Below are positions 24,944 through 53,408 of a stretch of DNA of 64,000 bases, in pieces. The position numbers and the translations under genes are program-made. Position 1 is the first letter of the stretch. Every line of letters starts with the position of its first letter. Origin of the DNA: Gammaproteobacteria bacterium (lineage in GTDB: Bacteria; Pseudomonadota; Gammaproteobacteria; SZUA-229); assembly GCA_024636785.1 (NCBI GenBank), contig JAGXGK010000025.1, positions 19,476 to 83,475 of the forward strand. Reading direction: 5' to 3'. Below the pieces are notes generated by a model. It made no database searches. It saw only the letters and a list, made by a program, of their open reading frames with translations, and was not told the DNA's origin.

Positions 24944-25180
24944 ATGAAAAATTCATTACCAAATTATCGCGATTCCGGTGAGCCAAAAACACCCGCTCTT
25001 CTGGTTCAGCCAGCAACAGAGTCGGTGCCGAGTCAAATGCAGCCAGTGTCAGCAGCAGCAGAAGAAGGCGGCTTGATGGTTTTCTTCGGTATCGGGATGG
25101 TTATTAATGTTGTCATGATTTTGGCATTCTTTATATGGGCAATTAAGCAGTGGAGAAAACATGATGCCGCAAAGAAATAG
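24944..25180 (+). CDS. small membrane protein
   Basis: 78 aa with one strong TM helix (MVFFGIGMVINVVMILAFFIWAI). Overlaps the start of the SCO gene. Confidence 0.45.
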   Translation: MKNSLPNYRDSGEPKTPALLVQPATESVPSQMQPVSAAAEEGGLMVFFGIGMVINVVMILAFFIWAIKQWRKHDAAKK

Positions 25181-25805
25181 AGGTCTGTATCGGGGTACTA
25201 TACTGCTTGTTCTGTTGTTATCGGTAACAGGGGTCTGGTACGTCAGTACGTCGCCTTCGAGTCCACCGCCCGAGCTGGTGGGAGTGCTCCGGCCAGCGCC
25301 GAAAATACTTAAACCGGTTGAGCTCATTGATCAGAACGGAGACGTGGTCAACACGCAGCTATTTAAGGACAAATGGTCTTTTGTTTTCTTCGGCTACACA
25401 TCCTGTCCCGATATCTGTCCGACTACCCTGCATGTATTAAATGCCGTCACCGATATACTCGGAAAAGATAAAGCCGAGCTGTTTCCGGATACCCAGGTGG
25501 TATTTATTTCAGTGGATCCGGAGCGCGATGCGGTAACTGATCTTGCCGATTACGTGAAATTTTTTAACAGGGATTTTGTGGGATTGACCGGCGATAAAAA
25601 AGATATCGATAATATTGCGCAGCAATTTGGGGCGGGTTATGTCCTCGAAGAAGAAACAGCGCCCGGGCAATACACGGTCGCCCATACCAGCGCTGTTTTT
25701 CTGGTTACACCTGAGTTAGAACTGGTCGCTGCTTTTTCGCAGCCGCACAATCCCAAAACTATTGTCGCTCAGTATGAAAAAATTCGAGCCTATATCTCAG
25801 AATAA
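25161..25805 (+). CDS. SCO/SenC family copper chaperone (copy 1)
   Basis: N-terminal TM anchor, FFGYTSCPDICPTT (CxxxC) and downstream His (VAHTSAVFLV). Confidence 0.88.
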   Translation: MMPQRNRGLYRGTILLVLLLSVTGVWYVSTSPSSPPPELVGVLRPAPKILKPVELIDQNGDVVNTQLFKDKWSFVFFGYTSCPDICPTTLHVLNAVTDILGKDKAELFPDTQVVFISVDPERDAVTDLADYVKFFNRDFVGLTGDKKDIDNIAQQFGAGYVLEEETAPGQYTVAHTSAVFLVTPELELVAAFSQPHNPKTIVAQYEKIRAYISE

Positions 25806-26792: not shown

Positions 26793-27836
26793 TTACTGGC
26801 TGCGCAGCTGGTGATTTACAAATAACGCAGCGGTCAGAAGCATTACTGCTCCGCCCTGATGCGCCGCAGCCAGTGCAACAGGAACGATCATCAGCAAAGT
26901 GGAAATGCCCAGAGTGATCTGCAGAGCCAGCGCAGCCAGCAATACATAGATACTGATGTGAGTCATCGCTTCCAGTTCCAGTTTCCTTGTTTTCAGCCAG
27001 AAAGCAGGAATGATTAAAAAAAGCAGGGTCGCCAGTACACGGTGATCAAATTGTACGGTGATAATATTCTCGAAAAAGTTACGCCAGAAGGGCTCCAGTA
27101 AAAACAGTCCATCGGGTATTAATTGTCCATTCATTAAAGGGAATGTATTGAAGGCGAATCCGGCTCGGGTGCCGGCAACAAAGCCGCCAGAGACGATGGT
27201 GATGAAAATAACAGTGGTGATGATTGAGGCCAGCCGGGTGAGTTTTGGCTCGTTCACACGGATTGCAGAGCGTTCTTTTGGCCGCAGTAAATCCAACGCG
27301 ATCCAGAACATATAGGCATAGATAATAATGGCCAGAGTCAGGTGCGCGGTGAGGCGATACTGACTGACATGCGGGTTATCCACTAGGCCGCTTTTTACCA
27401 TATACCAGCCCATTAACCCCTGAAGCCCGCCGAGTACAAACAGGGTGAGCAGTTTGGGGGTAAGCGCTTTGTCGATTTTTCGGGTAAGCAGAAAATACAT
27501 GAATGGAATAAAGAACAGCAGACCAATGCCTCTACCCAGAAGTCGATGTGCATATTCAAACCAGAAAATAGCTTTGAATTCATCCAGTGACATGTGGAAA
27601 TTTTTTAGCTGGAACTCGGGGTATTGCTGGTAAAGATAGAAGGTATGCTGCCAGGCTTCCTGATTAAGCGGTGGCAATATGCCCATTAGTGGTGCCCATT
27701 GCACCATGGAAAGACCCGAGCCGGTTAGGCGTGTTACCCCGCCCAGTACCACCATGCCAAAGATTGTTGCGCAGCAAATAAGTAGCCAGATGGCAATAGC
27801 CTTATTTGAATCATGGTTATCAAGTAATTTAGTCAT
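26793..27836 (-). CDS. ctaA: heme A synthase (COX15/CtaA family)
   Basis: Polytopic, with conserved His blocks FEYAHRLLGRG and VQFDHRVLATL. The ATG at 27836 overlaps the hemerythrin stop (ATGACTAA). Confidence 0.82.
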   Translation of the reverse strand: MTKLLDNHDSNKAIAIWLLICCATIFGMVVLGGVTRLTGSGLSMVQWAPLMGILPPLNQEAWQHTFYLYQQYPEFQLKNFHMSLDEFKAIFWFEYAHRLLGRGIGLLFFIPFMYFLLTRKIDKALTPKLLTLFVLGGLQGLMGWYMVKSGLVDNPHVSQYRLTAHLTLAIIIYAYMFWIALDLLRPKERSAIRVNEPKLTRLASIITTVIFITIVSGGFVAGTRAGFAFNTFPLMNGQLIPDGLFLLEPFWRNFFENIITVQFDHRVLATLLFLIIPAFWLKTRKLELEAMTHISIYVLLAALALQITLGISTLLMIVPVALAAAHQGGAVMLLTAALFVNHQLRSQ

Positions 27837-28239
27837 AAGGTGAATGTGATTTTTCGGCGTTATGCAGATGTGTATCATGAGTTTTGAAGTGCGCCAGAAA
27901 CCAGTTGTTCAGGCGCTCGCGTAATCGTTCGGTGTCAAGCTTTGTACTGGCTTCAACGTCATCGGTGATTTCGCCGATTTCGTCAAGTAGGCGCTCGTGG
28001 TCGGCTCGATGGGCTTCATAATCCTCGTAATTATGTTGTTCCATCCAGCGTTCTTCAAGTGCGAAATGGGAGGATATGCTGCCATAGATGTCACCCAGGC
28101 AACTGATGATGCCATTTTTATCCGCTGTATCGCCCAGCATCTCATAGGCTGTATTAATTAAATTTATTAGTTCCTGATGTTCGTGGTCAACACCGGGAAT
28201 TCCCGTGGAATATTCTTCGCGCCATTCAATTAATGTCAT
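27829..28239 (-). CDS. bacteriohemerythrin
   Basis: Hemerythrin His/Glu/Asp ligand pattern: GVDHEHQELINLIN, HFALEERWM, HRADHERLL, WFLAHFKTHD. Confidence 0.9.
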   Translation of the reverse strand: MTLIEWREEYSTGIPGVDHEHQELINLINTAYEMLGDTADKNGIISCLGDIYGSISSHFALEERWMEQHNYEDYEAHRADHERLLDEIGEITDDVEASTKLDTERLRERLNNWFLAHFKTHDTHLHNAEKSHSPYD

Positions 28240-28731: not shown

Positions 28732-28893
28732 ATGACAGAAGAGATTCATATACCCAAACCAGAGCGGATTCCGTTTTTCCAGCGAATGCTGGATAACCCG
28801 TTTTTATTACTCTTTATAGGTGTGGCGATGCCCACGGTTTTCTACGTTCTTTGGGGCGTTATGGAAGTCGCAACAATACCTATCGCCAAATAA
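28732..28893 (+). CDS. 53-aa single-TM micro-protein, candidate HCO subunit IIa-like (absent from ORF track)
   Basis: The ATG is preceded by AAGAGGA. Translation is MTEEIHIPKPERIPFFQRMLDNPFLLLFIGVAMPTVFYVLWGVMEVATIPIAK. It ends 20 nt before subunit II. Confidence 0.6.
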   Translation: MTEEIHIPKPERIPFFQRMLDNPFLLLFIGVAMPTVFYVLWGVMEVATIPIAK

Positions 28894-28913: not shown

Positions 28914-29459
28914 ATGAGCTCATTTTTACCCCCTGCTGACAGGATATGGTGGAAGGTTCCCGTTGGCCGTCAGGAAATTGTCTGGATCAGCATCGCGCTG
29001 GTCTGGTGTTTAATTATGTTTTTTATGATGCCTTACTGGCATGTATACGGGAAACAGAACCTTTCCAGCGAGGCCTACCAGACCAATGCTGAGAAGTTTG
29101 GTGCATCAGTAGAAACTTTTGTTGAGAAATATCAGACTCGTATAGACGAACAATCGGGTATACCAGTCGTAACGCCACCCGCCGGCAGTGATATCTATAT
29201 GCTGGGCAGGCTCTGGCAGTGGTACCCCATTCTTGAACTGGAAAAAGATAAAACCTATCGACTTCATTTAGGTTCGATGGACTGGAACCACGGCTTCTCA
29301 TTGCAGCCGGTTAATATCAATTTACAGGTCGTTCCGGGCTATGAAATGGTTATCAAGATAACCCCTGATCAAGCGGGTGAATATACAGTAGTTTGCAACG
29401 AATTTTGCGGCATCGGTCACCATACCATGGTCGGCAAAATCTACGTGAAGGAGAATTAA
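28914..29459 (+). CDS. heme-copper oxidase subunit II-like (single TM + CuA cupredoxin); norS-like
   Basis: Complete CuA motif: H in DWNHGF, then CNEFCGIGHHTM (CxExCGxxHxxM). One N-terminal TM helix. Confidence 0.85.
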   Translation: MSSFLPPADRIWWKVPVGRQEIVWISIALVWCLIMFFMMPYWHVYGKQNLSSEAYQTNAEKFGASVETFVEKYQTRIDEQSGIPVVTPPAGSDIYMLGRLWQWYPILELEKDKTYRLHLGSMDWNHGFSLQPVNINLQVVPGYEMVIKITPDQAGEYTVVCNEFCGIGHHTMVGKIYVKEN

Positions 29460-29460
29460 G

Positions 29461-31194
29461 ATGGCGAAATTCAGAGTTTGTCCCGATTCGGGCTTCTATT
29501 TTGACAAATCGGCTGAGAGCCTGATGAAAGTCAATGCGGTAGCGGGTGCTGTCTTCCTGCTTATCGCGGGTATACTGGCACTGGGCGTTATCCTGACGCG
29601 CTGGCAGGAAGTACATTTACTACCCGCAGATCTGTTCTATCAGGTATTGACCGCACACGGCATCAATGCCTTGATTTTCTGGGTTATCTTTTTCGAGATA
29701 GCGATTCTTTACTTTGCATCATCGACCTTGTTACGAAGTCGACTGGCTGCGCCTGGTTGGGCATGGGCAGGCTTCGCTTTGATGATCATTGGCGCGGTGA
29801 TGAATAATGTTGCTGTCTTGCAAGGTAATTCCAGTGTTATGATGACATCCTATGTGCCGATGCAGGCGGCCCCGCATTTCTATCTGGGGCTGATACTGTT
29901 CGCGGTCGGCGCACTGATCGGATGCTTTGTGTTTTTGGGGACCTTAGTGATAGCTAAGGACGATCAAACTTACCAGGGATCAGTCCCGCTGGTGACCTTC
30001 GGTGCCTTAACCGCTTGCATTATCGCCATCTTTACGATCGCATCGGGTGCCATTATTCTGTTCCCGACATTTCTCTGGTCGATTGGTTATATCAATCACA
30101 TTGATGCTGAAATGTACCGGATTATCTGGTGGGCATTGGGCCATTCGTCGCAGCAGATTAATGTGGCTGCACACGTTTCAGTCTGGTATCTCATTATCGG
30201 TATCCTGTTTAATGCACGTCCGATGTCTGAGAAGGTCAGTCGCTTTGCCTTCCTGCTCTACATCTTCTTCCTGCAACTGGCCAGTGCCCACCATATTCTG
30301 GTTGACCCGGGTGTAAGTACAGAGTGGAAGATCTTCAATACCAGTTATGCGATGTATCTGGCGGTATTGGCCAGTATGATCCACGGTTTGACCGTACCTG
30401 GCGCGATGGAAGTAGCTCAGCGCGGCAAGGGTTACACCAAGGGTCTGTTCGAATGGTTGCGTAAAGCCCCCTGGGGGAACCCGGTGTTCTCCGGCTTCTT
30501 CTTTGCATTGGTCATTTTCGGCTTCATCGGTGGCATCACCGGTGTGGTTATGGGTACTGAGCAGATTAATCTGATCATCCATAACACCATTTATGTACCT
30601 GCGCATTTCCATGCCACGGTAGCGGTGGGTACGACTCTGACCTTTATGGCCTTGACCTATCTGCTAATTCCGGTGCTGTTCAGACGCGCTCTGTTCCTGC
30701 CCTGGGTGGCCAAAATGCAGCCTTATGTATTTGCCGGCGGCATGACCATCATGATCCTGTTCCTGCTGGGTGCAGGTACTCTGGGCGTCTCACGTCGTCA
30801 CTGGGACATGGACTTCACTGGCGCGGCGCTGAGTTTTGAATACCCGGGTACGGCCTATATGATGATGGCTGTCGGCGGTATTGGCGGTGTACTGGGCGTG
30901 CTTGGTGGTGCTATGTATCTGGTCGTTACCGTGGGATCGTTGCTCTTTGGTAAGAAACTGGAGCCTTCTGCCGGTCTGTTTCAGAGCTTTGGTGTACCTT
31001 TGGCCGCTTCAGCCTACAATATTGACCAGCCAGATCAGTTACAGATGGCACCTAAGCTGGCTGTAGAGGAGCATGGTAGTGGTGGTTTCGAAGCACCGGG
31101 AACGTTTGTTCTGGCTTTGGCCCTGCTGGTCTGCTTCGTTGTTTACTACGCAATCAACTGGGATTATCTGGCCTCAGTCTGGCCAATGGGCTAG
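29461..31194 (+). CDS. heme-copper oxidase subunit I-like, putative sNOR-type NO reductase catalytic subunit; norY-like
   Basis: All six canonical His are present (LTAHGINA; WWALGHSSQQ; LASAHHILVDP; VPAHFHATV). The Tyr of GHPxVY is absent (GHSSQQ). Confidence 0.75.
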   Translation: MAKFRVCPDSGFYFDKSAESLMKVNAVAGAVFLLIAGILALGVILTRWQEVHLLPADLFYQVLTAHGINALIFWVIFFEIAILYFASSTLLRSRLAAPGWAWAGFALMIIGAVMNNVAVLQGNSSVMMTSYVPMQAAPHFYLGLILFAVGALIGCFVFLGTLVIAKDDQTYQGSVPLVTFGALTACIIAIFTIASGAIILFPTFLWSIGYINHIDAEMYRIIWWALGHSSQQINVAAHVSVWYLIIGILFNARPMSEKVSRFAFLLYIFFLQLASAHHILVDPGVSTEWKIFNTSYAMYLAVLASMIHGLTVPGAMEVAQRGKGYTKGLFEWLRKAPWGNPVFSGFFFALVIFGFIGGITGVVMGTEQINLIIHNTIYVPAHFHATVAVGTTLTFMALTYLLIPVLFRRALFLPWVAKMQPYVFAGGMTIMILFLLGAGTLGVSRRHWDMDFTGAALSFEYPGTAYMMMAVGGIGGVLGVLGGAMYLVVTVGSLLFGKKLEPSAGLFQSFGVPLAASAYNIDQPDQLQMAPKLAVEEHGSGGFEAPGTFVLALALLVCFVVYYAINWDYLASVWPMG

Positions 31195-31211
31195 CGTTAG
31201 TAACATCTCAT

Positions 31212-31251
31212 AAAAAACGCGGGAAAGCCTCTGGCTGTCCCGCGTTTTTTT
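31212..31251 (+). terminator. rho-independent terminator after HCO subunit I
   Basis: ACGCGGGA...TCCCGCGT stem followed by T7. Confidence 0.85.
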
Positions 31252-31490
31252 ATGCTTAAACCTAAATCCGTGGCTTAACCGAGGCGTCTGGCACAAGCCC
31301 CTGGCTCCACAGCGGATCAAAAAATGCCCGCTTAACCTAAGGGTGAAGCTAAGATTTTTTGAAACCCCTGTGAAACCAATATCTTGCACCATGCATCTAC
31401 GTTTAAATCACGGATTCAGCTTTAAAGAAATCTGTTTTCACACTTTTATGATACCCTTTTCAAATTATTCCACTTTGAGCTTAGATAAGT

Positions 31491-32342
31491 ATGAAGTTAT
31501 TTCTGGTTTTCAGCTTTTTACTGAATTTATTGTTCTTTCACCTTTCTGCTTATGCAACTGCACCGCTGGAGAAAGAAATTCCCATCCAAAAACGGGCGGA
31601 TGCAGCAGCAAGCTTTGACTACGATAGCGCCCTTAGAATTAGTCGAGAGGCTATTGATAACCAATTAGGGGAATATGCATTTACCAATGCCGAAGGTCAG
31701 GCAGTTGCAATGAGTGATTTCGCGGGCAAGCCGCTGGTCTTAAGCATGGTTTTTACCAGCTGTTATCAGATCTGTCCGATGACAGCCCGGCATCTGTCCA
31801 AGGTGGTGGAAAAGGCACGTGACGCCCTGGGCAAGGACAATTTTGCTGTCGCCATTGTCGGTTTTGACACTCCCGTTGATACGCCCGAAGCCATGCAGTA
31901 TTTTGCCAACAAGCAGGGCGTTCATAACAAGGATTGGCACTTATTGAGTATTTCCGCTGATGATGTAAAAGCCCTGTCGAAGGATACTGGCTTTATATAT
32001 TTTCCTTCGGCCAGTGGATTTGATCATCTGATTCAGACCACCATCATTGATGCAGAGGGAAAAGTTTATCGGCAGGTGTATGGTCAGGTATTTGATACGC
32101 CCATGTTAATTGAGCCACTGAAGGAGTTGATATTAGGTCGGCCACAGCCGGATCAGACTTTTCTTTCTGATCTTTCTAACAAGGTCAGGTTTTTCTGTAC
32201 CACCTATGATCCGGTTCGTGATAATTATTATTTTGACTATTCGTTGTTTCTGGGTATTCTAATAGGTGGCTCAATTATTTTGTTCACATTTGTGGTTATA
32301 TTCAGAGAGTGGCGTAAAGGTAATCAACGCTCTCATACTTGA
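31491..32342 (+). CDS. SCO/SenC family copper chaperone (copy 2) with C-terminal TM anchor
   Basis: Signal peptide, thioredoxin-fold FTSCYQICP (CxxxC), His in GFDHLIQT and C-terminal TM helix LFLGILIGGSIILFTFVVIF. Confidence 0.8.
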   Translation: MKLFLVFSFLLNLLFFHLSAYATAPLEKEIPIQKRADAAASFDYDSALRISREAIDNQLGEYAFTNAEGQAVAMSDFAGKPLVLSMVFTSCYQICPMTARHLSKVVEKARDALGKDNFAVAIVGFDTPVDTPEAMQYFANKQGVHNKDWHLLSISADDVKALSKDTGFIYFPSASGFDHLIQTTIIDAEGKVYRQVYGQVFDTPMLIEPLKELILGRPQPDQTFLSDLSNKVRFFCTTYDPVRDNYYFDYSLFLGILIGGSIILFTFVVIFREWRKGNQRSHT

Positions 32343-32413: not shown

Positions 32414-33976
32414 GTGTTGATCAATCCTATGAAGAGAGCCTATCTGGCTCTGGAATCCTGGTTCAATATTTCTTTTGGCACACATTGGAATCCAATGTAC
32501 CATCTGGGCACATTGACATTTTTTTTGTTCTGGATCATTCTGGTTACGGGTCTTTATCTGTTTGGGTTTTTTCATGGCAGTATCGATGGCGCTTATGACT
32601 CTGTCGAATATATCACTCACGATCAGTGGTATGCGGCAGGTGTGATGCGAAGCCTGCATCGTTACGCTTCCGATGCGGCGATTATTACCATTCTGCTGCA
32701 CCTGTTCAAAGAGCTGGCCTCGGGCCGTTATCACGGTGCCCGCTGGTTTTCCTGGGTATCAGGCTTGCCAACACTCTGGCTGGTAGTGACACTGGGTATA
32801 ACGGGCTACTGGCTGGTATGGGACGAACTGGGGCAATACGTGGCCATTGGTTCTGCTAGGCTGCTGGACTCCCTGCCCATATTTTCCGGTTCCATGGCCA
32901 GCAACTTCCTGCAAGGGCAGATGACAGATCGCTTCTTTATTCTTATAGAATTTTTGCATCTACTGGGTCAGCCGCTAATACTGTTTTTTCTGTTATGGCT
33001 GCACGTCAAACGACTTTCGAACGTCAATATAAATCCACCACGCGGTCTGGCTATAGGTTGTTTTTTAGCCCTGCTGGCATTGTCATTTATCAAGCCTGCG
33101 GTGAGTCATGCCCCGGCTAATTTGAGTTCAATGCCAACAGTGCTGGAGCTCGACTGGTTCTACCTGAACGCCTATCCATTGATGGATTACTGGTCAGAAG
33201 GTAAAACATGGTTGTTGGCAACCGCCATCACAGTTATATTGATGCTGCTGCCATTGCTACCGACAAAGAAAGCTGTCCCCGCTGCGGTGGTTGATCTCGC
33301 GCACTGCAATGGTTGCGAATTGTGTTTTGATGACTGCCCCTTTGAAGCAATCTCAGTGCAGGCGCGTACTGACGGCAGAAAATTTGAAAAGGAAGTTGTT
33401 GTCGATCCCTCCCTATGTGCATCCTGTGGAATTTGTATGGGCTCGTGTCCCTCCTCAAATCCATTTAGACAGTCCAATGAAGAGCTTAAAACGGGTATTG
33501 ATATGCCGTCGTTGCCGGTCGACAAAGTGCGTACCTTGACCGAACAGGCGGTAACATCAATGACCGGTTCCGCCAATGTTCTTCTGATCGGCTGTGAGCA
33601 CGGGTTTAATGTCAAGCAGCTTGATAATAATGAAACCGGAAGTGTGAAGTTAATTTGTAGCGGTATGATTCCACCCTCACTGATTGAATATGCATTAAAG
33701 AAAGGCGCAGACGGTGTGATGATTGTAGGTTGTCGCCACAATGACTGCTTCTATCGTTTTGGCAATCTCTGGATAGACAAGCGATTTTCCGGTGAACGCA
33801 AGCCGATACTCAGGAGCCGTGCAGATCGGCGTCGTATTAAAGTATTTGGCGGCGCTGAAACGGATAAAAAACTAATTGAAAAAGAACTGGAAGTTTTTCG
33901 CCATGAATTACTGGCGATAACCGAGCAAACTGATCTGCCTGAACAGGCTGAAATTAAAGAGTCTCCAGATGTTTAA
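32414..33976 (+). CDS. fusion protein: dihaem cytochrome b N-domain + 2x[4Fe-4S] ferredoxin + MvhD/FlpD-like domain
   Basis: Haem b His pairs are SLHRYASDAAIITILLH (H-x13-H) and FLHLLGQPLILFFLLWLH (H-x14-H). Fe-S motifs are CNGCELCFDDCP and CASCGICMGSCP. The MvhD-like block is KLICSGMIPPSLIEYALKKGADGVMIVGCRHNDCFY. Confidence 0.8.
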   Translation: MLINPMKRAYLALESWFNISFGTHWNPMYHLGTLTFFLFWIILVTGLYLFGFFHGSIDGAYDSVEYITHDQWYAAGVMRSLHRYASDAAIITILLHLFKELASGRYHGARWFSWVSGLPTLWLVVTLGITGYWLVWDELGQYVAIGSARLLDSLPIFSGSMASNFLQGQMTDRFFILIEFLHLLGQPLILFFLLWLHVKRLSNVNINPPRGLAIGCFLALLALSFIKPAVSHAPANLSSMPTVLELDWFYLNAYPLMDYWSEGKTWLLATAITVILMLLPLLPTKKAVPAAVVDLAHCNGCELCFDDCPFEAISVQARTDGRKFEKEVVVDPSLCASCGICMGSCPSSNPFRQSNEELKTGIDMPSLPVDKVRTLTEQAVTSMTGSANVLLIGCEHGFNVKQLDNNETGSVKLICSGMIPPSLIEYALKKGADGVMIVGCRHNDCFYRFGNLWIDKRFSGERKPILRSRADRRRIKVFGGAETDKKLIEKELEVFRHELLAITEQTDLPEQAEIKESPDV

Positions 33977-34481
33977 TTCACAAAATAAATTTGTCAGGTA
34001 TGCTTTACAGGCGATTAATTATGCCGTTTTTATCGCGATAGTTGGCTACTTCTCAACCTCACCTTCGTATCGGCAGTTAGCTGATGATGAAGCAATCATC
34101 ACTATTTCTATTAGCCATGCGGGTGAGTTAAAAGAGCTGTGTCAGAGGCGTAGCCAGGAAGAATTGATGGCATTACCACCTAACATGAGAGCACCTATGG
34201 AATGCTCACGGGAACGCTCACCGGTCATTATCGAGGTACTGCTTGATGGGCAGCCGATGTATTCACATAAGGCTGAAGCACCGGGACTCTACAATGATAG
34301 CGGTATTGATATTTACCATACTTTAAAGGTGTCTGCAGGCAGCCATCATCTCGCTCTCAAGATGGATGACAGCGTGCTTAAGGAGGGCTTCACCCATCAT
34401 TTCAGCCAGGATGTGGAGATTGCACCAGCTGAGATATTGTTGATTGGTTTTGAATCCGGCCGGGGTTTTGTTATCAGATAA
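33969..34481 (+). CDS. hypothetical single-TM protein co-transcribed with the cyt b-FeS fusion
   Basis: 8-nt overlap with the upstream gene. N-terminal TM helix INYAVFIAIVGYF. No family recognised. Confidence 0.55.
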   Translation: MFNSQNKFVRYALQAINYAVFIAIVGYFSTSPSYRQLADDEAIITISISHAGELKELCQRRSQEELMALPPNMRAPMECSRERSPVIIEVLLDGQPMYSHKAEAPGLYNDSGIDIYHTLKVSAGSHHLALKMDDSVLKEGFTHHFSQDVEIAPAEILLIGFESGRGFVIR

Positions 34482-34951: not shown

Positions 34952-35392
34952 TTATAGCTGTTGCGGATACATATGGAAAACGAACAGATATATCACGACC
35001 CCGGTAATCGAAACATACAACCAGACAGGTAAGGTCCAGCGCGCTATGCGAGGATGTTGTTTGATGTTGCCCCGTAATGCAAGTGTCGCGGTGGTAATAA
35101 CCAGAGGTACGAGTAGCATGGCGAGAATGACATGCGTACTGAGAATTGTAAAATAAACAGGCCTTATTATTCCCGTTCCGGCGAATGGGTGGAAGCCAAC
35201 ATTAATATGATATATGGAATAGGACAGTAAAAAAATGGCAGAAGTAATCAGGGTTGCAGTCATGCATATCTGGTGGGCACGGAGGTTCTTCTTTTTTATA
35301 TGATAAAAGCCGCTCAATAGCAAAATGGCTGCCAGCGCATTTAATAATGCCTGCACGTGCGGAAGATAAGGGATTAATGTTTCGATAGTCAC
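34952..35392 (-). CDS. DUF420 membrane protein (CtaM-like oxidase assembly factor family)
   Basis: 146 aa with four TM helices. HIKKKNLRAHQ and HPRIARWTLPVWLYVS blocks are typical of DUF420. Confidence 0.7.
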   Translation of the reverse strand: MTIETLIPYLPHVQALLNALAAILLLSGFYHIKKKNLRAHQICMTATLITSAIFLLSYSIYHINVGFHPFAGTGIIRPVYFTILSTHVILAMLLVPLVITTATLALRGNIKQHPRIARWTLPVWLYVSITGVVIYLFVFHMYPQQL

Positions 35393-38809: not shown

Positions 38810-39982
38810 TTAAAGGCCGGTTTTGTGCGCGCGCACGGTGGCAAAAATGCCGCTGGGTTTGTTGGCCGGCAAGCGCACGCGTTCTTCAAAGCTTTCAGTG
38901 TCATAAACCACCAGCTGGTCGTCATCACGAATCGATGCCCATAGCTCTTCACCGCGAGGTTCAAACTCCATGTGCAGCACGCCCTTGCCGGGCTGTAATT
39001 TTTTGATGATCTTCAGCGACTGTGTATCAATCACTTGCAGGGTGTCGTTGTTCGGTATGGCAAAGTTGACCCAGACGTGGCGGCCATCAGGGCGGGCCAT
39101 GACAAAAATCGGCTGGCCGTGTACTTTAATGCGACCGGCTTCGGACCAGTTCCGGGTGTCGATCACCAGCACTTCGTGGCGACCCACGGCAGGTACAAAT
39201 GCATACTGTCCAGCCATCGCCCAGCCTTCCAGATGGGGCATTTTATAAACCGGCAGCTTCTGCTCGCCTTTACCGTAGTGGTCCAGTATACGTTTCACCC
39301 CGGCATCGAGATTCCATAGATCAAGGAGCGCCATGCCGTCTTCTCCAAACAGGCCGGCAATGTAATAACGGCCATCGGGTGAAATCAGCGCATCGTAGGG
39401 ATTGCGGCCGATGTCCTTGAATTTCTGAATCGAGGGTTTGTCTGGCCGGGACATATCGGCCACCCAGATTTCATCCGCATCCCACAGGCTGAAAACAAAC
39501 TTCTGCCCGGGGGCATCAACCAGGCCGATGACTTTTGAAGTCTGTTTCGTATCGCCATAGCTTGCCGGAATATCGGCCACCAGTGCCAGTGTTGCGGCAT
39601 CAAATATCTTCACGCCACCGGGCTCGTAATTGGAAACTGCCACCAGCGAGCCGTCCTGGGAGATGGCACCGCCGATGCTGTTACCCGCCTGCATAATGCG
39701 CTTGACGATTTTTCGCGTCAGCATATCCACCTTGGTGAGGCCGCCATCACGGCCAAAAATGTAGGCGTAACGCTCGTCGCGGGAATAGACCGCCGAGGCG
39801 TGCGACAGATCGCCCAGACCTTCAATGCGACCCAGGCTGGAGTTGCCGGTGGTTTCGATAATCTGAATACTGCCGCTGGCGCGTTCGATCACCAGGGCAA
39901 GATCACCGGTGCCGCGTAAATCCGCTGCATGCACCGGGATAAGCAAGACCAGTAAGAGTGAAAAGAGGGTGGTGCGGATCAT
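38810..39982 (-). CDS. nirF: NirF, cd1-like beta-propeller heme d1 biosynthesis protein
   Basis: Internal start MIRTTLFSLLLVLLIPVHA (signal). GTGDLALVIERASGS and a propeller body with no haem c motif. ATGA overlap with the nirC stop. Confidence 0.85.
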   Translation of the reverse strand: MIRTTLFSLLLVLLIPVHAADLRGTGDLALVIERASGSIQIIETTGNSSLGRIEGLGDLSHASAVYSRDERYAYIFGRDGGLTKVDMLTRKIVKRIMQAGNSIGGAISQDGSLVAVSNYEPGGVKIFDAATLALVADIPASYGDTKQTSKVIGLVDAPGQKFVFSLWDADEIWVADMSRPDKPSIQKFKDIGRNPYDALISPDGRYYIAGLFGEDGMALLDLWNLDAGVKRILDHYGKGEQKLPVYKMPHLEGWAMAGQYAFVPAVGRHEVLVIDTRNWSEAGRIKVHGQPIFVMARPDGRHVWVNFAIPNNDTLQVIDTQSLKIIKKLQPGKGVLHMEFEPRGEELWASIRDDDQLVVYDTESFEERVRLPANKPSGIFATVRAHKTGL

Positions 39983-40329
39983 TGGGAAATCCCCTGTTTG
40001 AGCTGCCTGGCGATCCACAGCGCATCGTCGGCGGAGAGCATGGTCTTCCAGCCGGGCATGGCGGTATTGGCATGGCCTTCGAGAATAGTGACCACCAGAT
40101 ACTCGGTCGGTTTGCCTTCGAGCTGTGCCGGCAGCAGGGCGGGGCCGAGGCCGCCTTTCAGGGTCATACCGTGGCAGGAGCCGCAATCCTGTTTCAGCAG
40201 GTGCATCAGCTCGCTCTGGCGCGATGCCGCGACCTCTGCCAGTGCCGGTTCCGAGATTAATCCTGAAACCAGCATCAGACTAACTAAGAACAGCGGTGTC
40301 TTCAACAAAATCAGACTCCTGTAGTGCAC
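39979..40329 (-). CDS. nirC: NirC monohaem cytochrome c55X
   Basis: Signal peptide and a single CGSCHG. 116 aa, between nirE and nirF. The listed start overlaps the nirE 3' end by 50 nt. Confidence 0.8.
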   Translation of the reverse strand: MHYRSLILLKTPLFLVSLMLVSGLISEPALAEVAASRQSELMHLLKQDCGSCHGMTLKGGLGPALLPAQLEGKPTEYLVVTILEGHANTAMPGWKTMLSADDALWIARQLKQGISQ

Positions 40330-41288: not shown

Positions 41289-43073
<1,785 letters not shown>

Positions 43074-47770: not shown

Positions 47771-49360
47771 TTAGTGGCTGGTGCCTTCCAGATATCGGGT
47801 TTTGTTGTAGACATTGTATTTGCCCGAGGGTTTGTTCATTGGCAGGCGCTTGATTTCTTCGAGGCTGTTGGCGTCGTAAACAATCACTGCGCCGTCGGTA
47901 TCCCAGATGCTGAGCAGGGCGTATTTGCCGTCGCGGGTGAACTCGACGTGAGCGGCGGTTTTGCCGGGGGCGGGGCGCAGGGTTTTGACGATTTCCAGGG
48001 TGCTTTTGTCGATTACATGCACGGCATCTTTATTCGGGCCGAAGAAAACATCAACCCAGGCGTAGGGACTGTTTTTATGGCTGCGCATGAAGAAGCCGGG
48101 TCCGAGGGTTTCGATGTTTTTGATGGTTTTCCAGCTTTCCATATCGATGACGCTGACGTTATTAGCTTTCAGGTTGGGCGTGGCCAGCACGGTGCGGCCC
48201 TGATATTCCCAGGTAATGCCGGAGCCGAGGTGGGGCATGCCGGGCAGCGCCAGATCAGGCACGATGACGCGACCGACATCCAGATTGACCACCTGACCCT
48301 TGCCTTCGCGCGAGGCACCGATCAGGTTCACGTAGTCCTGGTCGAAGAAAAAATCATCCAGATAATCGCTGACTTCGATTTTTCTTACCGGGAAGGGATC
48401 CGGCGTGATTTTCTCGCCGGAATCTTCGCGGTAATCGTGTACCCAGAAACCAAAGCCGGCAGGCGGATTATCATCGTAGGAGATTTCCCACAGTTCGGGG
48501 ATATCCTTTAAGGCGGCGATGAAACTGTTGCGTGGTGGTGCGGTATAGACGGCGCTGACGCGGGAAGTTTTGCCGGTATGGTCTTTGGCTTCGAACAATT
48601 TGATCGGGCTTAGGTCTTTGGCATCGAGCAGTACCAGAGTGTGCGGCAGGTAATTGGCGACCATGACATAGCGACCATCAGCAGAGACCGCCTGATTACG
48701 GGTGTTGATGCCGGCACGGATTTCGGCGACCAGTTTCAGGTTGTAAATATCGTATTTGCTGATCCAGCCATCGCGTGAGGCAAAGTAGACGAAGCGGCCG
48801 TCCGGTGAATATTTGGGGCCGCCGTGCAGGGCAAAGCGCGACTTGAAGCGGTGGATGGGTTCCAGTTTATCGCCATCGAGCAGGGTGACGTGGTGGTCGC
48901 CCAGCTCAACCACCAGAAACAGGTTCAGCAGATCGGCGACTTCAAACACGGGCTTGTCGGAGAGTTCGCTTGCTTTGTTATGAATGATCTGGCTGGCTCT
49001 GATTTCAGCCATGCCCCACACCGGCATCTGTTCCAGCGGTGTATAGATATAGTCAACCAGTGACCGGGTTTCTGTCTCGGAAAGCTTTTCCCTGAAGGCC
49101 GGCATCTGGGTGGCGACGCGGCCATTGGTAATCACTGTAGCCGCGTCTTTCATTTTCAGTCGTTTAAGATTTTCCGGCAGCAGTGCAGGCCCCATGCCGC
49201 CAAGGCGATGTTCATTGTGACATTCAGCACAATGATCCCGATAGAGTTGCTGTGTCTTGTTGACAGTCTTAGCCTCGGCCGATTCAGCCTGTGCCGGAGC
49301 CGAAAGTGTTGTTGCCAGCAGGCAGAAAGTGCAGAGCGTAAAAAAGGTTTTGTGGTTCAT
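47771..49360 (-). CDS. nirN: NirN-like cytochrome cd1-family protein
   Basis: 529 aa. Signal peptide, CAECHN haem c domain, cd1-type propeller and C-terminal KPSGKYNVYNKTRY. No other nirN candidate in the window. Confidence 0.65.
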   Translation of the reverse strand: MNHKTFFTLCTFCLLATTLSAPAQAESAEAKTVNKTQQLYRDHCAECHNEHRLGGMGPALLPENLKRLKMKDAATVITNGRVATQMPAFREKLSETETRSLVDYIYTPLEQMPVWGMAEIRASQIIHNKASELSDKPVFEVADLLNLFLVVELGDHHVTLLDGDKLEPIHRFKSRFALHGGPKYSPDGRFVYFASRDGWISKYDIYNLKLVAEIRAGINTRNQAVSADGRYVMVANYLPHTLVLLDAKDLSPIKLFEAKDHTGKTSRVSAVYTAPPRNSFIAALKDIPELWEISYDDNPPAGFGFWVHDYREDSGEKITPDPFPVRKIEVSDYLDDFFFDQDYVNLIGASREGKGQVVNLDVGRVIVPDLALPGMPHLGSGITWEYQGRTVLATPNLKANNVSVIDMESWKTIKNIETLGPGFFMRSHKNSPYAWVDVFFGPNKDAVHVIDKSTLEIVKTLRPAPGKTAAHVEFTRDGKYALLSIWDTDGAVIVYDANSLEEIKRLPMNKPSGKYNVYNKTRYLEGTSH

Positions 49361-49825: not shown

Positions 49826-51595
49826 TTATTTCCCTACGGCATTAATTTCCGCATCGTCATTATCAAAGCCCAGTATCAGCCCCAGTGAGACATGATGGAA
49901 ACGGCTGTTGCTGTAATCATCGTGTATGGCAAAACCGATGCTGTACATCTGGTCGGTGCTCATGCTGATGTCACCGGCTTTGTCCGAGCTGAGCTTACGG
50001 GTCATTTCAACCGTCCATACGCCATTTTCAAGGCTGCCGGTGAAATCCACTCCCTGACCGCCAGTCATGACGCGCTCGGCCAGAATGTAACCATCTTCAG
50101 ATTCACCTGTACCCGCTTTGTAGCGCAGCAGATCCATAAATGAACCATTTTCCAGCGCGGCCTGAATCTCGCCAGCCTCTTTCAATTTGTCCCAGCCGCC
50201 GCGTTTGGCATCATTTTTACCCTCGATCTCGATCTCGGTACGGCTCTCTTTAAGGTACTTGGTGAAGCCATTGCTGGAGTCGAGTCGACTGTCGGCCAGC
50301 GCTGACTGATCGGGCTGGTCAGGCATATCGTTGACATCGTGATGACAGCTTTGCCAGCAACCGGCACGCTCCGTGTATTCTACTTTGGGGTCGTCCTCAT
50401 TAATCGCCGCGAGCATAATTGCCAGCTTGATCGGATTTTTCGGATCCATCTTGCCGCCTTCTGCAAAAGGAATAGCTGCATGTTCACCGTCCGGCCACTG
50501 GAAGCGCATGTACAGATTTTCGCCATCGTGTTTGGCCTGCACGTTAACGTCAATGCTGCCGCGCTTGCCGGGAATAGGGGTAGGTTCGAGTTTCTCGCCG
50601 GAAACAATCAGTTTCCCGATACTCATTCCTTCACCTTCATGACAATCGAAGCAACGGTCACCGTATAAAAATCCACGTTTGCCGCCGTGGTCGCTGCCCT
50701 TGAGTACCCACTCCATAGAGGCCTGACCCGGATAAAAGAGGGTGACTTCTGCGGCTTCAATGCCTGACCAGTCGACACCCGTGACCGATTTTGTGCCGGT
50801 AGCGGCGGGTGCGGTATCAGCCTGACTTGAAGCTGGTGCTGCCAATTCGGTTTTGGCGGGCGTAGCATCCTCAGTTGTTTCAGTCTCAATAGCCGCCGCT
50901 GTTCCAGCCGGGTCATCTGTTGTGGTGACCAGCTTTTTATCGTTATCGATAAAAGCCTGCCACTGTGGCGCTATGGGGCGTTTGTTTTTTTCAACTGGTT
51001 TTGAAAGCTCTTCCAGCTCGCTTTCGCTCAACTGATCATGAACCTTGCTGTGCGCAATACCTTTGTGGCAATCGATGCAGGTATTGCCCCTTTCCATGGC
51101 GCCGGCATGCTGCCTACGCGAACGTTTCTTTTGATCTTCCGGCTTCATCGAATCGAAATTGTGGCAGTTTCGGCATTCGCGTGAATCTGTCTCCTTCATC
51201 GAACGCCAGACATTTTTGGCCAGGAATAAACGCTTGGCATTGAATTTTTCCGGGGTGTCGATGGTACCAAGCACCTTATGCAGGACCTCGTTACTGGCCT
51301 TTATTTTGCGCACGACTTTGTGCACCCAGGGGTCGGGTACATGGCAGTCTGAGCAGGTGGCGCGCACGCCACTACGGTTGGTGTAATGAATGGTTTTTTT
51401 GTATTCCTGATAAACATTCTCTTCCATCTCATGACAGGAGATGCAGAATTCCAGGGTATTGGTGACTTCCATGGCGGTATTGAAACCACCCCAGAAGATG
51501 ACACCGACAATCATGAAAAACAGGGCCGCGCCCAGTGTGGTTCCCATCAGGACCTTGCGCGACATTAAACCGAATTTCCTAGATGTATTAGTCAT
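49826..51595 (-). CDS. nirT: NirT (NapC/NirT tetrahaem) fused to a C-terminal NirB/EB_dh-like haem domain
   Basis: The N-terminal ~190 aa are highly similar to NapC at 18307 and carry four CXXCH motifs. An Ala/Thr/Pro-rich linker follows. The C-terminal ~330 aa carry CFDCH and CWQSCH (CX3CH). Confidence 0.75.
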   Translation of the reverse strand: MTNTSRKFGLMSRKVLMGTTLGAALFFMIVGVIFWGGFNTAMEVTNTLEFCISCHEMEENVYQEYKKTIHYTNRSGVRATCSDCHVPDPWVHKVVRKIKASNEVLHKVLGTIDTPEKFNAKRLFLAKNVWRSMKETDSRECRNCHNFDSMKPEDQKKRSRRQHAGAMERGNTCIDCHKGIAHSKVHDQLSESELEELSKPVEKNKRPIAPQWQAFIDNDKKLVTTTDDPAGTAAAIETETTEDATPAKTELAAPASSQADTAPAATGTKSVTGVDWSGIEAAEVTLFYPGQASMEWVLKGSDHGGKRGFLYGDRCFDCHEGEGMSIGKLIVSGEKLEPTPIPGKRGSIDVNVQAKHDGENLYMRFQWPDGEHAAIPFAEGGKMDPKNPIKLAIMLAAINEDDPKVEYTERAGCWQSCHHDVNDMPDQPDQSALADSRLDSSNGFTKYLKESRTEIEIEGKNDAKRGGWDKLKEAGEIQAALENGSFMDLLRYKAGTGESEDGYILAERVMTGGQGVDFTGSLENGVWTVEMTRKLSSDKAGDISMSTDQMYSIGFAIHDDYSNSRFHHVSLGLILGFDNDDAEINAVGK

Positions 51596-51743: not shown

Positions 51744-53408
51744 TTAAGTTACATGGTTAACGCGGTTATACACGTTGAACTTACCTGTTGGAGCGTAAAG
51801 TCCTTTAATACGTGCTTTTTCTTCCAGTGTTTTAGCATCAAAGATGATGATTTCACCGTTAGGTTTCAGACTGTCTGAACGATTCCATACAGATGCCCAT
51901 ACTTCGGTGCCATCTTTGTTGAACTCGAAGTGAACGGCTGCGTAGCCCTTTTTATCAGTTAGCTGAATAGTCTTAACAATCTTACGAGTTTTCTTGTCAA
52001 GAACTTTAACTGACTGCTGGATAGCAGGTTCAGGGTGTTTAGTCTGGTCTATCCAGACGTAATCACTCTTGGGATGGGTGCGCAGGAACACGCCTGCACC
52101 GTCGGTGTCAACGGTGTAGCAGAGTTTCCAGGCCTGATCTTTATGACCTTTTGGATCATTGCCCCAGACTGAGACTTTGCCCACGCCAAGATGCGTTGTA
52201 CCTGCTACAGGACCACACTTGTCATCGTTCCAGTTTGCACCAGGACCTGGGTGAGGTTTGCTGGCAACATCGATCATTGCTTCTAGCTTGCGATCCACGG
52301 TATCGATGACTACCATCTTGTCAGAAGCGTTAGCCGCGATCTGGAAGTAACGGCCTGTTGGGTCGAAGAAGCCATCATGCAGGTACTTGGCAGAATCGAT
52401 TTCGGTGATCTGCAGGTTATCAAGATCACTGTAATCAACCTGCCACATCTGACCTAATTCCTTCGCAGCCACTAACCAGGTAGGAGCCAACGGTGTGTCA
52501 TAGATCGCAGCAACACGTGACTCGTTAACATACTCACCATCAACGTTAACACCACGAGTAGAAACGACTTTCAGAGGTTCCATGGTTTTAGCATCAGCGA
52601 TAACGAAGTGGGGAGGCCAGTAACCGCCACCGATAACGTACTTGCCATCACCTGATACGGCAACGTCACGTGCGTCATAAGCAACCTGTACCTGAGCGAC
52701 TTTCATCTTGTCAGGGTTAGCCCATAGATCGATTTTAGTCATCATGCCATCACGACCCATGATGTACCAGAAACGGCCAGCGTCTTTAGCATGCAGGGTT
52801 TGATGATGTTCGACTGTTTTCAGTACGTGTACTGCATATCCGGTAGAAATGTGGGCAAGCACTTCTTTTTTATCACCGTCGATGATAGCGATCGAACCTT
52901 TATCACGTTCGATAGCGATGAAAAAATTCTCCCAGTTACGGCCATGCATTGGCTTGCTAGGATAATCTTTTGGTTCTATATAAACCTTCCAGCGTTCTTT
53001 CATTAATGCCAGAGACATTTCGGGTGGTACTGGGGGCTCCATCTGGATATACCGGGCCAGCAGGTTTATTTCCTCTTTGCTGAAGATATCATCAAAGTTG
53101 TTCATGCCGCCTTCGGTACCGAGGGTAATAATTCGCTCCAGACGTTTTGTGCCCAGTTTGAGAGTGCCTTTGGTGTTTTTGGCTTTATTGGGTTTTGGTT
53201 CCAGGTTTTTACCCGTGGCACCGACGCGTAAAACACCATGACAACCGGCACAACGCTGGAAGTACATGCTCTTTGCGGTTTCAAATTCAGCCTCGTTAAG
53301 AGGTACGAATTCATCTTTTTTGGCGAAGGCTACACCCGAAGATGCGGCCATGCCCACGCATGCGGCAACGAGTGCTGCACCGTATTTTAACTTATGTTTC
53401 GTGCTCAT
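51744..53408 (-). CDS. nirS: cytochrome cd1 nitrite reductase NirS (copy 2)
   Basis: 554 aa. Signal peptide, CAGCHG, d1 propeller and C-terminal TGKFNVYNRVNHVT. Its codon usage is distinct from neighbouring genes. Confidence 0.93.
   Translation of the reverse strand: MSTKHKLKYGAALVAACVGMAASSGVAFAKKDEFVPLNEAEFETAKSMYFQRCAGCHGVLRVGATGKNLEPKPNKAKNTKGTLKLGTKRLERIITLGTEGGMNNFDDIFSKEEINLLARYIQMEPPVPPEMSLALMKERWKVYIEPKDYPSKPMHGRNWENFFIAIERDKGSIAIIDGDKKEVLAHISTGYAVHVLKTVEHHQTLHAKDAGRFWYIMGRDGMMTKIDLWANPDKMKVAQVQVAYDARDVAVSGDGKYVIGGGYWPPHFVIADAKTMEPLKVVSTRGVNVDGEYVNESRVAAIYDTPLAPTWLVAAKELGQMWQVDYSDLDNLQITEIDSAKYLHDGFFDPTGRYFQIAANASDKMVVIDTVDRKLEAMIDVASKPHPGPGANWNDDKCGPVAGTTHLGVGKVSVWGNDPKGHKDQAWKLCYTVDTDGAGVFLRTHPKSDYVWIDQTKHPEPAIQQSVKVLDKKTRKIVKTIQLTDKKGYAAVHFEFNKDGTEVWASVWNRSDSLKPNGEIIIFDAKTLEEKARIKGLYAPTGKFNVYNRVNHVT

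Follow-up and report, generated by a model that had tools for sequence, protein, structure and literature searches.

A cytochrome b-ferredoxin-MvhD fusion protein of the PDWF-FeS clade, a constant companion of eNOR-type nitric oxide reductase genes

What does a dihaem cytochrome b do inside a nitric oxide (NO) reductase operon when it is fused to a ferredoxin module and an MvhD-like domain? This question is raised by a gene of a gammaproteobacterium (assembly GCA_024636785.1) that lies in a stretch of 64,000 nucleotides of contig JAGXGK010000025.1 (positions 19,476 to 83,475), referred to here as the window. The fusion gene belongs to an operon for a haem-copper oxidoreductase of the eNOR type, in the order 53-amino-acid open reading frame (ORF), subunit II, subunit I, SCO1-like gene, fusion gene and orf170. 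The first-pass annotation of this DNA, made from the letters alone, took the fusion to be unusual; it belongs to a large family that earlier work had named the PDWF-FeS clade of cytochrome b (PMC4122944) and that is uncharacterized, and it is not unique. Judging from domains and genomic company, the fusion protein and the translationally coupled orf170 are tentatively read, with somewhat less than even confidence, as a transmembrane electron wire of the eNOR cassette that would deliver to CuA. A sizeable part of the NO reduction and N2O formation in the environment is attributed to enzymes of the eNOR type, and the role of a family that constantly accompanies them bears on both the electron supply and the assembly of eNOR.

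Anatomy of the fusion protein and of orf170

The fusion gene begins with a GTG codon and encodes 520 amino acids, a start that is about right since relatives align from residues 1-3. Its N-terminus matches the Pfam family Cytochrome_B (PF00033; residues 24-200, E 2e-16, 60.8 bits versus a cut-off of 27.2) as well as b6-like cytochromes in NCBIfam, and residues 23-187 align with solved cytochrome b6 (2zt9_A) at E 4.8e-18 as a single sequence and at 6e-42 with the family profile. In the b6 alignment His82, His96, His182 and His197 coincide with the haem ligands; the x13 pair (His82, His96) lies within SLHRYASDAAIITILLH and the x14 pair (His182, His197) within FLHLLGQPLILFFLLWLH, and the ligands are paired as His82/His182 and His96/His197. 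Residue conservation was counted over 121 full-length sequences that reach down to about 30% identity, and the four histidines are kept in 120-121 of these representatives, in agreement with the dihaem cytochrome b with both bis-His pairs that had been proposed at the outset.

Two more transmembrane helices had been noticed after this bundle. They were confirmed and can now be assigned, as a profile of residues 198-296 alone matches b6f subunit IV (E 5.7e-5) and C-terminal mitochondrial cytochrome b (about 3e-4), aligning the family sequence elDWFylf onto lPEWYlyp and kPEWYFLFAY. Of the subunit-IV-like, or C-terminal, part the fusion keeps helices E and F only; the match therefore indicates that the two helices and the ef loop that shape the Qo site have been retained. 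Asp247, which takes the position of the Glu of PEWY, is present in 119 of the 121 representatives. This Qo (PEWY-like) motif and the orf170 module described below were both absent from the first-pass annotation.

Helices A-F, the four haem histidines with their x13 and x14 spacing, the cd-loop sequence and the position of the Qo motif are thus features shared with cytochrome b6 plus subunit IV and with bc1 cytochrome b. In contrast to b6f and bc1, the window system has no Rieske protein, no cytochrome c1/f and no helices G-H. No Rieske box (CxHxGC...CxxH) was found in the six frames of the window or of 86 loci, and none appeared in the neighbourhood Pfam lists. Unlike b6f, the protein carries Fe-S domains attached on the n-side and lacks the CxGG cysteine of haem cn: His30 occupies the Cys35 position, which varies between His, Gln and Tyr among the 121 representatives.

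The ferredoxin module that follows the helices contains the motifs C298NGCELCFDDCP (298-309) and C335ASCGICMGSCP (335-346) within matches to Pfam Fer4_7 and Fer4 (residues 292-347), and its eight cysteines are about 97% conserved. The C-terminal domain matches Pfam FlpD (PF02662; residues 408-498, E 3.1e-14, 53.5 bits versus a cut-off of 22.3) and solved MvhD (9sw2_D, E 6.5e-11), so that the double CxxCxxCxxxCP module and the MvhD-like C-terminus seen on first inspection were both upheld. The MvhD-like stretch KLICSGMIPPSLIEYALKKGADGVMIVGCRHNDCFY corresponds to residues 412-446; Cys415, Cys440 and Cys445 fall on the cysteines of the MvhD motifs MCSG and GCxxxDC, and Cys394 would be equivalent to the fourth MvhD ligand, making these four residues candidate [2Fe-2S] ligands (Cys394, 415 and 440 about 93% conserved, Cys445 78%). 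Residues 290-504 as a whole match the C-terminal ferredoxin-MvhD unit of HdrA2 in NCBIfam (E 8e-24), with which, as with MvhD, they share the order of two [4Fe-4S] motifs followed by the MvhD fold and the matching cysteines. They differ from those systems in that the unit is tethered to a membrane cytochrome and comes without hydrogenase, the HdrA flavin domain or HdrBC.

The AlphaFold2 model of the fusion, computed from a 36-sequence input, has a mean pLDDT (predicted local distance difference test) of 91.4 and a pTM (predicted template modelling score) of 0.88, and in Foldseek its first ~290 residues superpose on complex III cytochrome b. The n-side loops contain nine Lys+Arg residues and the p-side loops one, and by the cytochrome b alignment helix F ends on the n-side; these two observations support a cytoplasmic location of the Fe-S/MvhD part, as helix counting had predicted. 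Altogether, the predicted anatomy comprises an MvhD-type [2Fe-2S] cluster and two [4Fe-4S] clusters extending from helix F into the cytoplasm, two b haems in the membrane and an xDWF pocket on the p-side.

The start of orf170 overlaps the stop of the fusion gene by 8 nt at ATGTTTAA. In 57 of the best 150 representatives at 50% identity, its homologue is fused in frame to the C-terminus, giving products of ~690-720 amino acids, and since it is fused to the cytochrome b-FeS protein in many lineages orf170 is regarded as the fourth module of the system. Its model (pLDDT 91.7) shows one membrane helix and then a beta-sandwich, which should be periplasmic because it follows a cytoplasmic domain and has two conserved cysteines. 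No Pfam family was matched at E up to 1 by any of 31 members scanned and no Foldseek match fell below E 1e-3, the best (1.7e-3) being to unrelated beta-sandwiches. Residues invariant in close relatives are His50, Cys58, Met73, Cys79, His126 and Asp134. Family-wide, Gly106, Asp110, Gly124 and Arg83 reach about 90% or more, Arg74, Arg81, His126 and Met73 about 80%, and the cysteines 59-68%; a metal site is possible. Identification as a cupredoxin, a copper chaperone, PCuAC or FixG_C was considered and received no support, with no Pfam or structural match and putative ligands conserved only in part.

Linkage to eNOR and spread of the family

The first-pass annotation had placed the fusion beside an sNOR-type subunit I and asked whether the linkage was conserved. 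Conserved linkage to a haem-copper oxidoreductase cluster was indeed found, but the type has to be corrected. Subunit I has GHSSQQIN where B-family oxygen reductases have GHPVVYFW, with Gln at the Tyr site; as the signature at the cross-linked active-site Tyr is Gln in eNOR and Asn in sNOR (PMC8756737), the neighbouring oxidase is of the eNOR type. Enzymes of this type use haem As, and CtaA has been tied to them (PMC11214002), which fits the linkage of ctaA and ctaB to these loci. NO reductase activity without O2 reductase activity is documented for the Rhodothermus marinus eNOR only (PMC11214002). The 'norSY-senC-orf1' cluster of ammonia-oxidizing bacteria was examined as an explanation and discarded: the window oxidase is an eNOR, and the Bacillus cluster has a six-helix CbaD instead.

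Co-occurrence was counted by tblastn with the window proteins in the 80 best genome loci (58-97% identity). Homologues of orf170 were present in 76 of these, the SCO1-like gene in 75, subunit I in 69, subunit II in 53, DUF420 in 40, hemerythrin in 36 and ctaA in 16, and in the loci inspected the missing genes coincide with contig ends. The gene ctaB (UbiA family, haem O synthase) is found between subunit I and SCO1 in 64 related loci; the window and its closest relatives (L001-L009) have ~300 nt there (31195-31490 in the window) and no ctaB, and no UbiA homologue was detected anywhere in the 64 kb. All 60 readable subunit I genes carry GHS[SA]QQ. Five remote members of the family (30-47% identity, SAR324 among them) adjoin COX2-like, COX1 and SCO1 genes, often with ctaA, ctaB, a gene for a tetratricopeptide repeat (TPR) protein and nirS in addition. 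Over 88 loci, spanning 30-97% identity, the fusion gene thus sits in an eNOR cassette beside SCO1 in all cases where the contig is long enough to show it.

The whole cassette is also carried by the 165-kb plasmid NZ_CP156080.1 of the cultured strain Defluviimonas sp. SAOS-178_SWC (L089, 13852-20598), in the order small ORF, subunit II, subunit I, cyoE, SCO, 'cytochrome b N-terminal domain-containing protein', 172-aa hypothetical protein and hemerythrin, suggesting that the eNOR cassette is mobile. Some names on this plasmid are misleading, subunit I being annotated as 'cbb3-type cytochrome c oxidase subunit I' and subunit II as hypothetical. The 53-aa ORF ahead of subunit II in the window has a clear homologue on the plasmid, an annotated gene of 60 aa in the equivalent position, and remote loci (L081-L084) have ORFs of 49-70 aa there as well; the ORF is probably the first of the operon, and its product a small third subunit of eNOR.

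The SCO1-like gene is adjacent to the cytochrome b module, or one gene away, in all variants with visible flanks. Its product keeps the CxxxC motif (C91, C95) and His179, and in 71 of 74 relatives it bears a C-terminal extension, FCTxYDPxxDxYxFDYSxF, followed by a membrane helix; it is a divergent, specialized SCO1.

Paralogous versions of the system were found in which the same six-helix module (47-56% identical) ends either in Flavodoxin, FAD_binding_1 and NAD_binding_1 domains, resembling P450 reductase, or in Fer2, FAD_binding_6 and NAD_binding_1 domains. Modules of both kinds generally oxidize NAD(P)H. Both flavoprotein versions lie directly 3' of a SCO1 gene (L087, L088), and in L087 the ferredoxin-MvhD and flavoprotein versions stand side by side, together with PCuAC-like, CtaG and NnrS genes. 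A second COX1-like gene is found directly 3' of the orf170 homologue in two loci (L083, 9077-10552; L087, 3020-4516); it encodes 491-498 amino acids, 27-28% identical to eNOR subunit I, with the motif WGGGHVLQ[FY]T, without a clear HH copper-ligand pair and without a subunit II of its own. On a metagenome contig (L086, 1-3780) overlaps and splits affect the genes for COX1, cytochrome b and Fer2-FAD-NAD. They give the appearance of a COX1-cytochrome b fusion (P0187), which was rejected as proof of contact, frameshift errors being likely.

Relatives of the fusion number in the thousands in a large protein collection: 486 representatives at 50% identity score below E 1e-30, a pattern scan of one genome per species located relatives in 464 stretches, and the best 120 (67-100% identity) have the three domains in all cases. 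Hosts on record include Gammaproteobacteria, SAR324, Thermodesulfobacteriota, Nitrospinota, 'Deltaproteobacteria', a Haliangium metagenome-assembled genome and an alphaproteobacterial isolate. In public records they are named 'hydrogenase iron-sulfur subunit' or 'coenzyme F420-reducing hydrogenase delta subunit/ferredoxin'.

The PDWF-FeS clade was named by Kao & Hunte (2014) for cytochromes b with an xDWF Qo motif, C-terminal non-Rieske Fe-S domains (4Fe-4S plus MvhD) and no Rieske protein in the gene cluster, and it includes a protein of Alicycliphilus denitrificans fused to a ferredoxin and a flavin oxidoreductase (PMC4122944). Judged against this published description, and not against the named sequences, the window protein belongs to the clade: it shares the type of Qo motif, the Fe-S and MvhD domains and the absence of a Rieske gene from the cluster, and differs in having Leu instead of Pro before the Asp. 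The description itself is a phylogeny note on three sequences, in which no link to eNOR, SCO1 or orf170 was drawn and no function was proposed (PMC4122944). More recently, the eNOR operon of the denitrifying Ferrigenium straubiae was reported to contain genes for a haem o synthase and sco1 and two cytochrome-b-like genes, one combining cytochrome b with Fe-S and the other with Fe-S, FAD and NADH domains; both proteins were detected in the proteome, and they were called 'rather unusual' and proposed to act as a quinol:NAD+ oxidoreductase (bioRxiv 10.64898/2026.01.22.701106). The two versions stand together there as in L087. Likened by description and not by sequence, the Ferrigenium pair corresponds to genes that, in the present survey, are the rule across many phyla. 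Beyond these two mentions in the literature, the analysis adds how extensive and constant the linkage to eNOR and SCO1 is. It also shows that helices E-F are homologous to subunit IV and carry a Qo Asp that is almost invariant, and it recognizes in orf170 a fourth module, encoded separately or as part of the fusion. Finally, it documents that versions with Fe-S and with flavoprotein ends exist together, and that a cultured strain has the cassette on a plasmid.

Possible roles of the system

In the electron-wire reading introduced above, electrons would enter from a cytoplasmic reductant, which in the paralogues would be NAD(P)H acting through the fused flavoprotein modules, and would pass from the Fe-S clusters to the n-side haem and on to the p-side haem, finally reaching copper proteins of the eNOR system on the periplasmic side. 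The favoured acceptor would be CuA of eNOR subunit II, the system then being a dedicated input for NO reduction, and quinol bound at the Qo-type pocket possibly feeds this input too. The direction of flow and the acceptor are inferred. Outward flow is favoured because the interchangeable cytoplasmic modules are NAD(P)H-oxidizing reductases, and because ferredoxin and MvhD clusters have low potentials in known settings, so that transfer to the haems would be downhill and assisted by the membrane potential, the reverse being steeply uphill.

Several points weigh against such a donor role. Purified Rhodothermus eNOR consists of two bands and is active with N,N,N',N'-tetramethyl-p-phenylenediamine (TMPD)/ascorbate (PMC11214002), and therefore, the gene content of that genome aside, the fusion is neither required for catalysis there nor a tightly bound subunit. 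The gene sits among the biogenesis genes ctaB, sco1, ctaA and DUF420; a pure wire leaves the near-invariant Qo Asp unaccounted for; and the MvhD-type version has no assigned cytoplasmic donor. CuA enzymes are usually supplied by periplasmic cytochrome c or cupredoxins and have no obvious need of a dedicated donor, and NO reduction driven by NAD(P)H along this route would conserve little or no energy. Finally, no experimental study of any family member was found in the literature, in line with the statement of the first-pass annotation that the function was not known. The CuA-donor reading is nevertheless favoured, given the exclusive tie to eNOR, the detection of relatives in a proteome and the conserved Qo pocket, with a role in biogenesis as a near-equal rival.

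According to this rival, which appears possible although on the whole unlikely, the outward wire would serve the assembly of eNOR, with a function like that of the cupric reductases CcoG and CrpH. For copper insertion it could convert Cu(II) to Cu(I) or maintain the SCO1 CxxxC and CuA cysteines in the reduced state; alternatively it could supply electrons to haem A synthase (CtaA) for the haem As of eNOR. The constant proximity of SCO1 noted above speaks for a role of this kind, as do the ctaB, ctaA and DUF420 genes of the cassette, to which L087 adds the PCuAC-like and CtaG genes. Like CcoG/FixG and CrpH, the fusion is a membrane redox protein encoded with oxidase or copper genes. CcoG combines cytoplasmic 2x[4Fe-4S] with a periplasmic beta-sandwich, and the layout of the window system, with a membrane part, a cytoplasmic 2x[4Fe-4S] module, a last helix and a periplasmic beta-sandwich, parallels it. 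Modules of the ferredoxin/ferredoxin-NADP+ reductase (FNR) and P450-reductase types are moreover the classical partners of haem oxygenases, and mitochondrial Cox15 requires ferredoxin and its reductase. Haem-dependent CrpH and ccoG support haem-copper oxidase function (PMC13038864), and eNOR purified without the fusion protein is active (PMC11214002).

The resemblance does not extend to homology. CcoG has no b haems and is not detectably homologous to the fusion or to 31 orf170 relatives; the FixG membrane, ferredoxin and FixG_C domains gave no Pfam match in the fusion or the orf170 relatives, and no structural match. For the periplasmic module no similarity to FixG_C, PCuAC or any copper chaperone was found, and its candidate metal ligands are 59-82% conserved family-wide. 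In addition, copper insertion is needed by all such oxidases, yet the module is seen with eNOR-type subunit I only; a canonical SCO1 gene is present in the same window (Table 1); the conserved Qo motif is left without explanation; and relatives were detected in the Ferrigenium straubiae proteome.

Quinol bifurcation or reverse transport, in which a Rieske-less Qo site oxidizes quinol and sends one electron to eNOR and the other to ferredoxin or NAD(P)+, would give the Qo-type motif with its near-invariant Asp a direct purpose. Its first electron might be taken, though this too is improbable, by the orf170 head or a copper protein of the cassette, the second passing through the b haems and the Fe-S clusters. 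Schemes of this kind have been published for the Ferrigenium relative (bioRxiv 10.64898/2026.01.22.701106) and for the anammox Rieske/cytochrome b complexes (PMC5600118; PMC12954380). In the latter, as here, a small cytochrome b anchors a cytoplasmic Fe-S (flavo)protein, and those with an NAD(P)-binding Fe-S oxidoreductase subunit have been proposed to generate NAD(P)H (PMC5600118; PMC12954380); they differ in having separate subunits, a Rieske protein and multihaem c proteins, and are not tied to eNOR. Many hosts of the family are sulfur- or iron-oxidizing autotrophs that need reverse electron flow, and orf170 is built like a Rieske protein, with an N-terminal anchor and a periplasmic head bearing conserved His, Cys and Met.

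On the other side, hosts also include the likely heterotrophs Defluviimonas, Haliangium and Competibacteraceae, neither a Rieske protein nor any other acceptor of proven high potential is present, and the Cys and His of orf170 are not universally conserved. P450-reductase-type paralogues are known only as NADPH oxidizers. Transfer from the n-side haem to ferredoxin-type clusters would, with typical potentials, be steeply uphill and against the membrane potential, and bifurcation is rated low because of these unfavourable energetics; as a whole it is improbable. If true, it would mean that NO reduction pays for reduced ferredoxin or NAD(P)H, representing a new type of quinone-based bifurcation and a natural model of n-side exchange between cytochrome b6 and ferredoxin/FNR.

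The hydrogenase or heterodisulfide-reductase subunit of the public annotation, suggested by the FlpD/MvhD domain and the names in the records, can be set aside with near certainty, as no hydrogenase or Hdr genes occur in the window or in any inspected neighbourhood and the name has evidently spread from the domain alone; of the Hdr- or hydrogenase-like relay first envisaged, only the shared ferredoxin-MvhD unit survives.

Metabolic reconstructions overlook the family because it is annotated as a hydrogenase subunit. Whether it acts as an electron donor, as a biogenesis reductase or as a quinol oxidase that bifurcates matters for how much energy is credited to aerobic and microaerobic denitrification, and an answer would reveal what purpose a complete Qo-type cytochrome b serves when no Rieske protein is present. 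Experiments on the family are within reach through the plasmid-borne cassette of cultured Defluviimonas and through its known relatives in Magnetospirillum.

The operon and its surroundings in the window

The features of the locus are listed in Table 1. Nap, NirS and eNOR make the window a denitrification island, in which no NO reductase besides eNOR was seen. It contains nap genes (18.3-24.6 kb), the canonical SCO1 gene, ctaA, hemerythrin, the oxidase operon and DUF420, and further on haem d1 genes, nirS and paralogues, a NosR/NirI-like gene, a NirT-EB_dh fusion and molybdenum cofactor genes. Scans for promoters and terminators gave nothing above background that would mark the ends of the operon. 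The hemerythrin may, as a speculation, be the O2 supply of haem A synthase, an O2-dependent enzyme, when oxygen is scarce. The DUF420 family includes CtaM, required for haem-A oxidase function in Staphylococcus.

Table 1. Positions of the fusion gene, its domains and the neighbouring genes in the window.
Feature	Position	Strand	Basis or remark
53-aa single-helix ORF ahead of subunit II	28732..28893	+	Homology to Defluviimonas plasmid gene
eNOR subunit II, complete CuA motif (C161, E163, C165, H169, M172)	28914..29459	+	
Haem-copper oxidoreductase subunit I, eNOR type (GHSSQQIN)	29461..31194	+	Motif alignment
SCO1/SenC-like copper protein, specialized	31491..32342	+	Pfam; conservation in 75 sequences
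Fusion gene (cytochrome b helices A-F, 2x[4Fe-4S] ferredoxin, MvhD-like)	32414..33976	+	ORF, Pfam, NCBIfam, PDB matches, AlphaFold2
Cytochrome b6-like four-helix bundle (aa 24-200)	32483..33013	+	Pfam PF00033, b6 alignment, conserved His
Helices E and F with ef loop (aa 205-292), homologous to b6f subunit IV	33026..33289	+	Profile search, Foldseek
Qo-type motif L246-D-W-F-Y250, aligned on PEWY	33149..33163	+	Profile alignment
2x[4Fe-4S] ferredoxin domain (aa 292-348), two CxxCxxCxxxC motifs	33287..33457	+	Pfam Fer4_7, Fer4
MvhD/FlpD-like domain (aa 388-498)	33575..33907	+	Pfam FlpD, solved MvhD alignment, NCBIfam HdrA2
orf170: N-terminal membrane helix and (predicted) periplasmic beta-sandwich	33969..34481	+	Model, linkage, fusions
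DUF420 membrane protein	34952..35392	-	Pfam; convergent with the operon
ctaA (haem A synthase)	26793..27878	-	Divergent from the eNOR operon
Bacteriohemerythrin	27829..28239	-	Overlaps ctaA; divergent from the eNOR operon
Canonical SCO1	25161-25805		Elsewhere in the window

Two further observations concern the nir region. Four proteins with a cytochrome d1 domain are encoded on the minus strand of the window (38810-40186, 41289-43031, 47771-49360 and 51744-53408), three of them with an N-terminal cytochrome c domain, a number that exceeds the needs of a standard nir cluster. A NapC/NirT tetrahaem domain is fused to an EB_dh (ethylbenzene-dehydrogenase-like) haem domain in the window (49826-51595, minus strand) and in the remote locus L082 (13209-14927), and in both places the fusion adjoins cd1-type genes.

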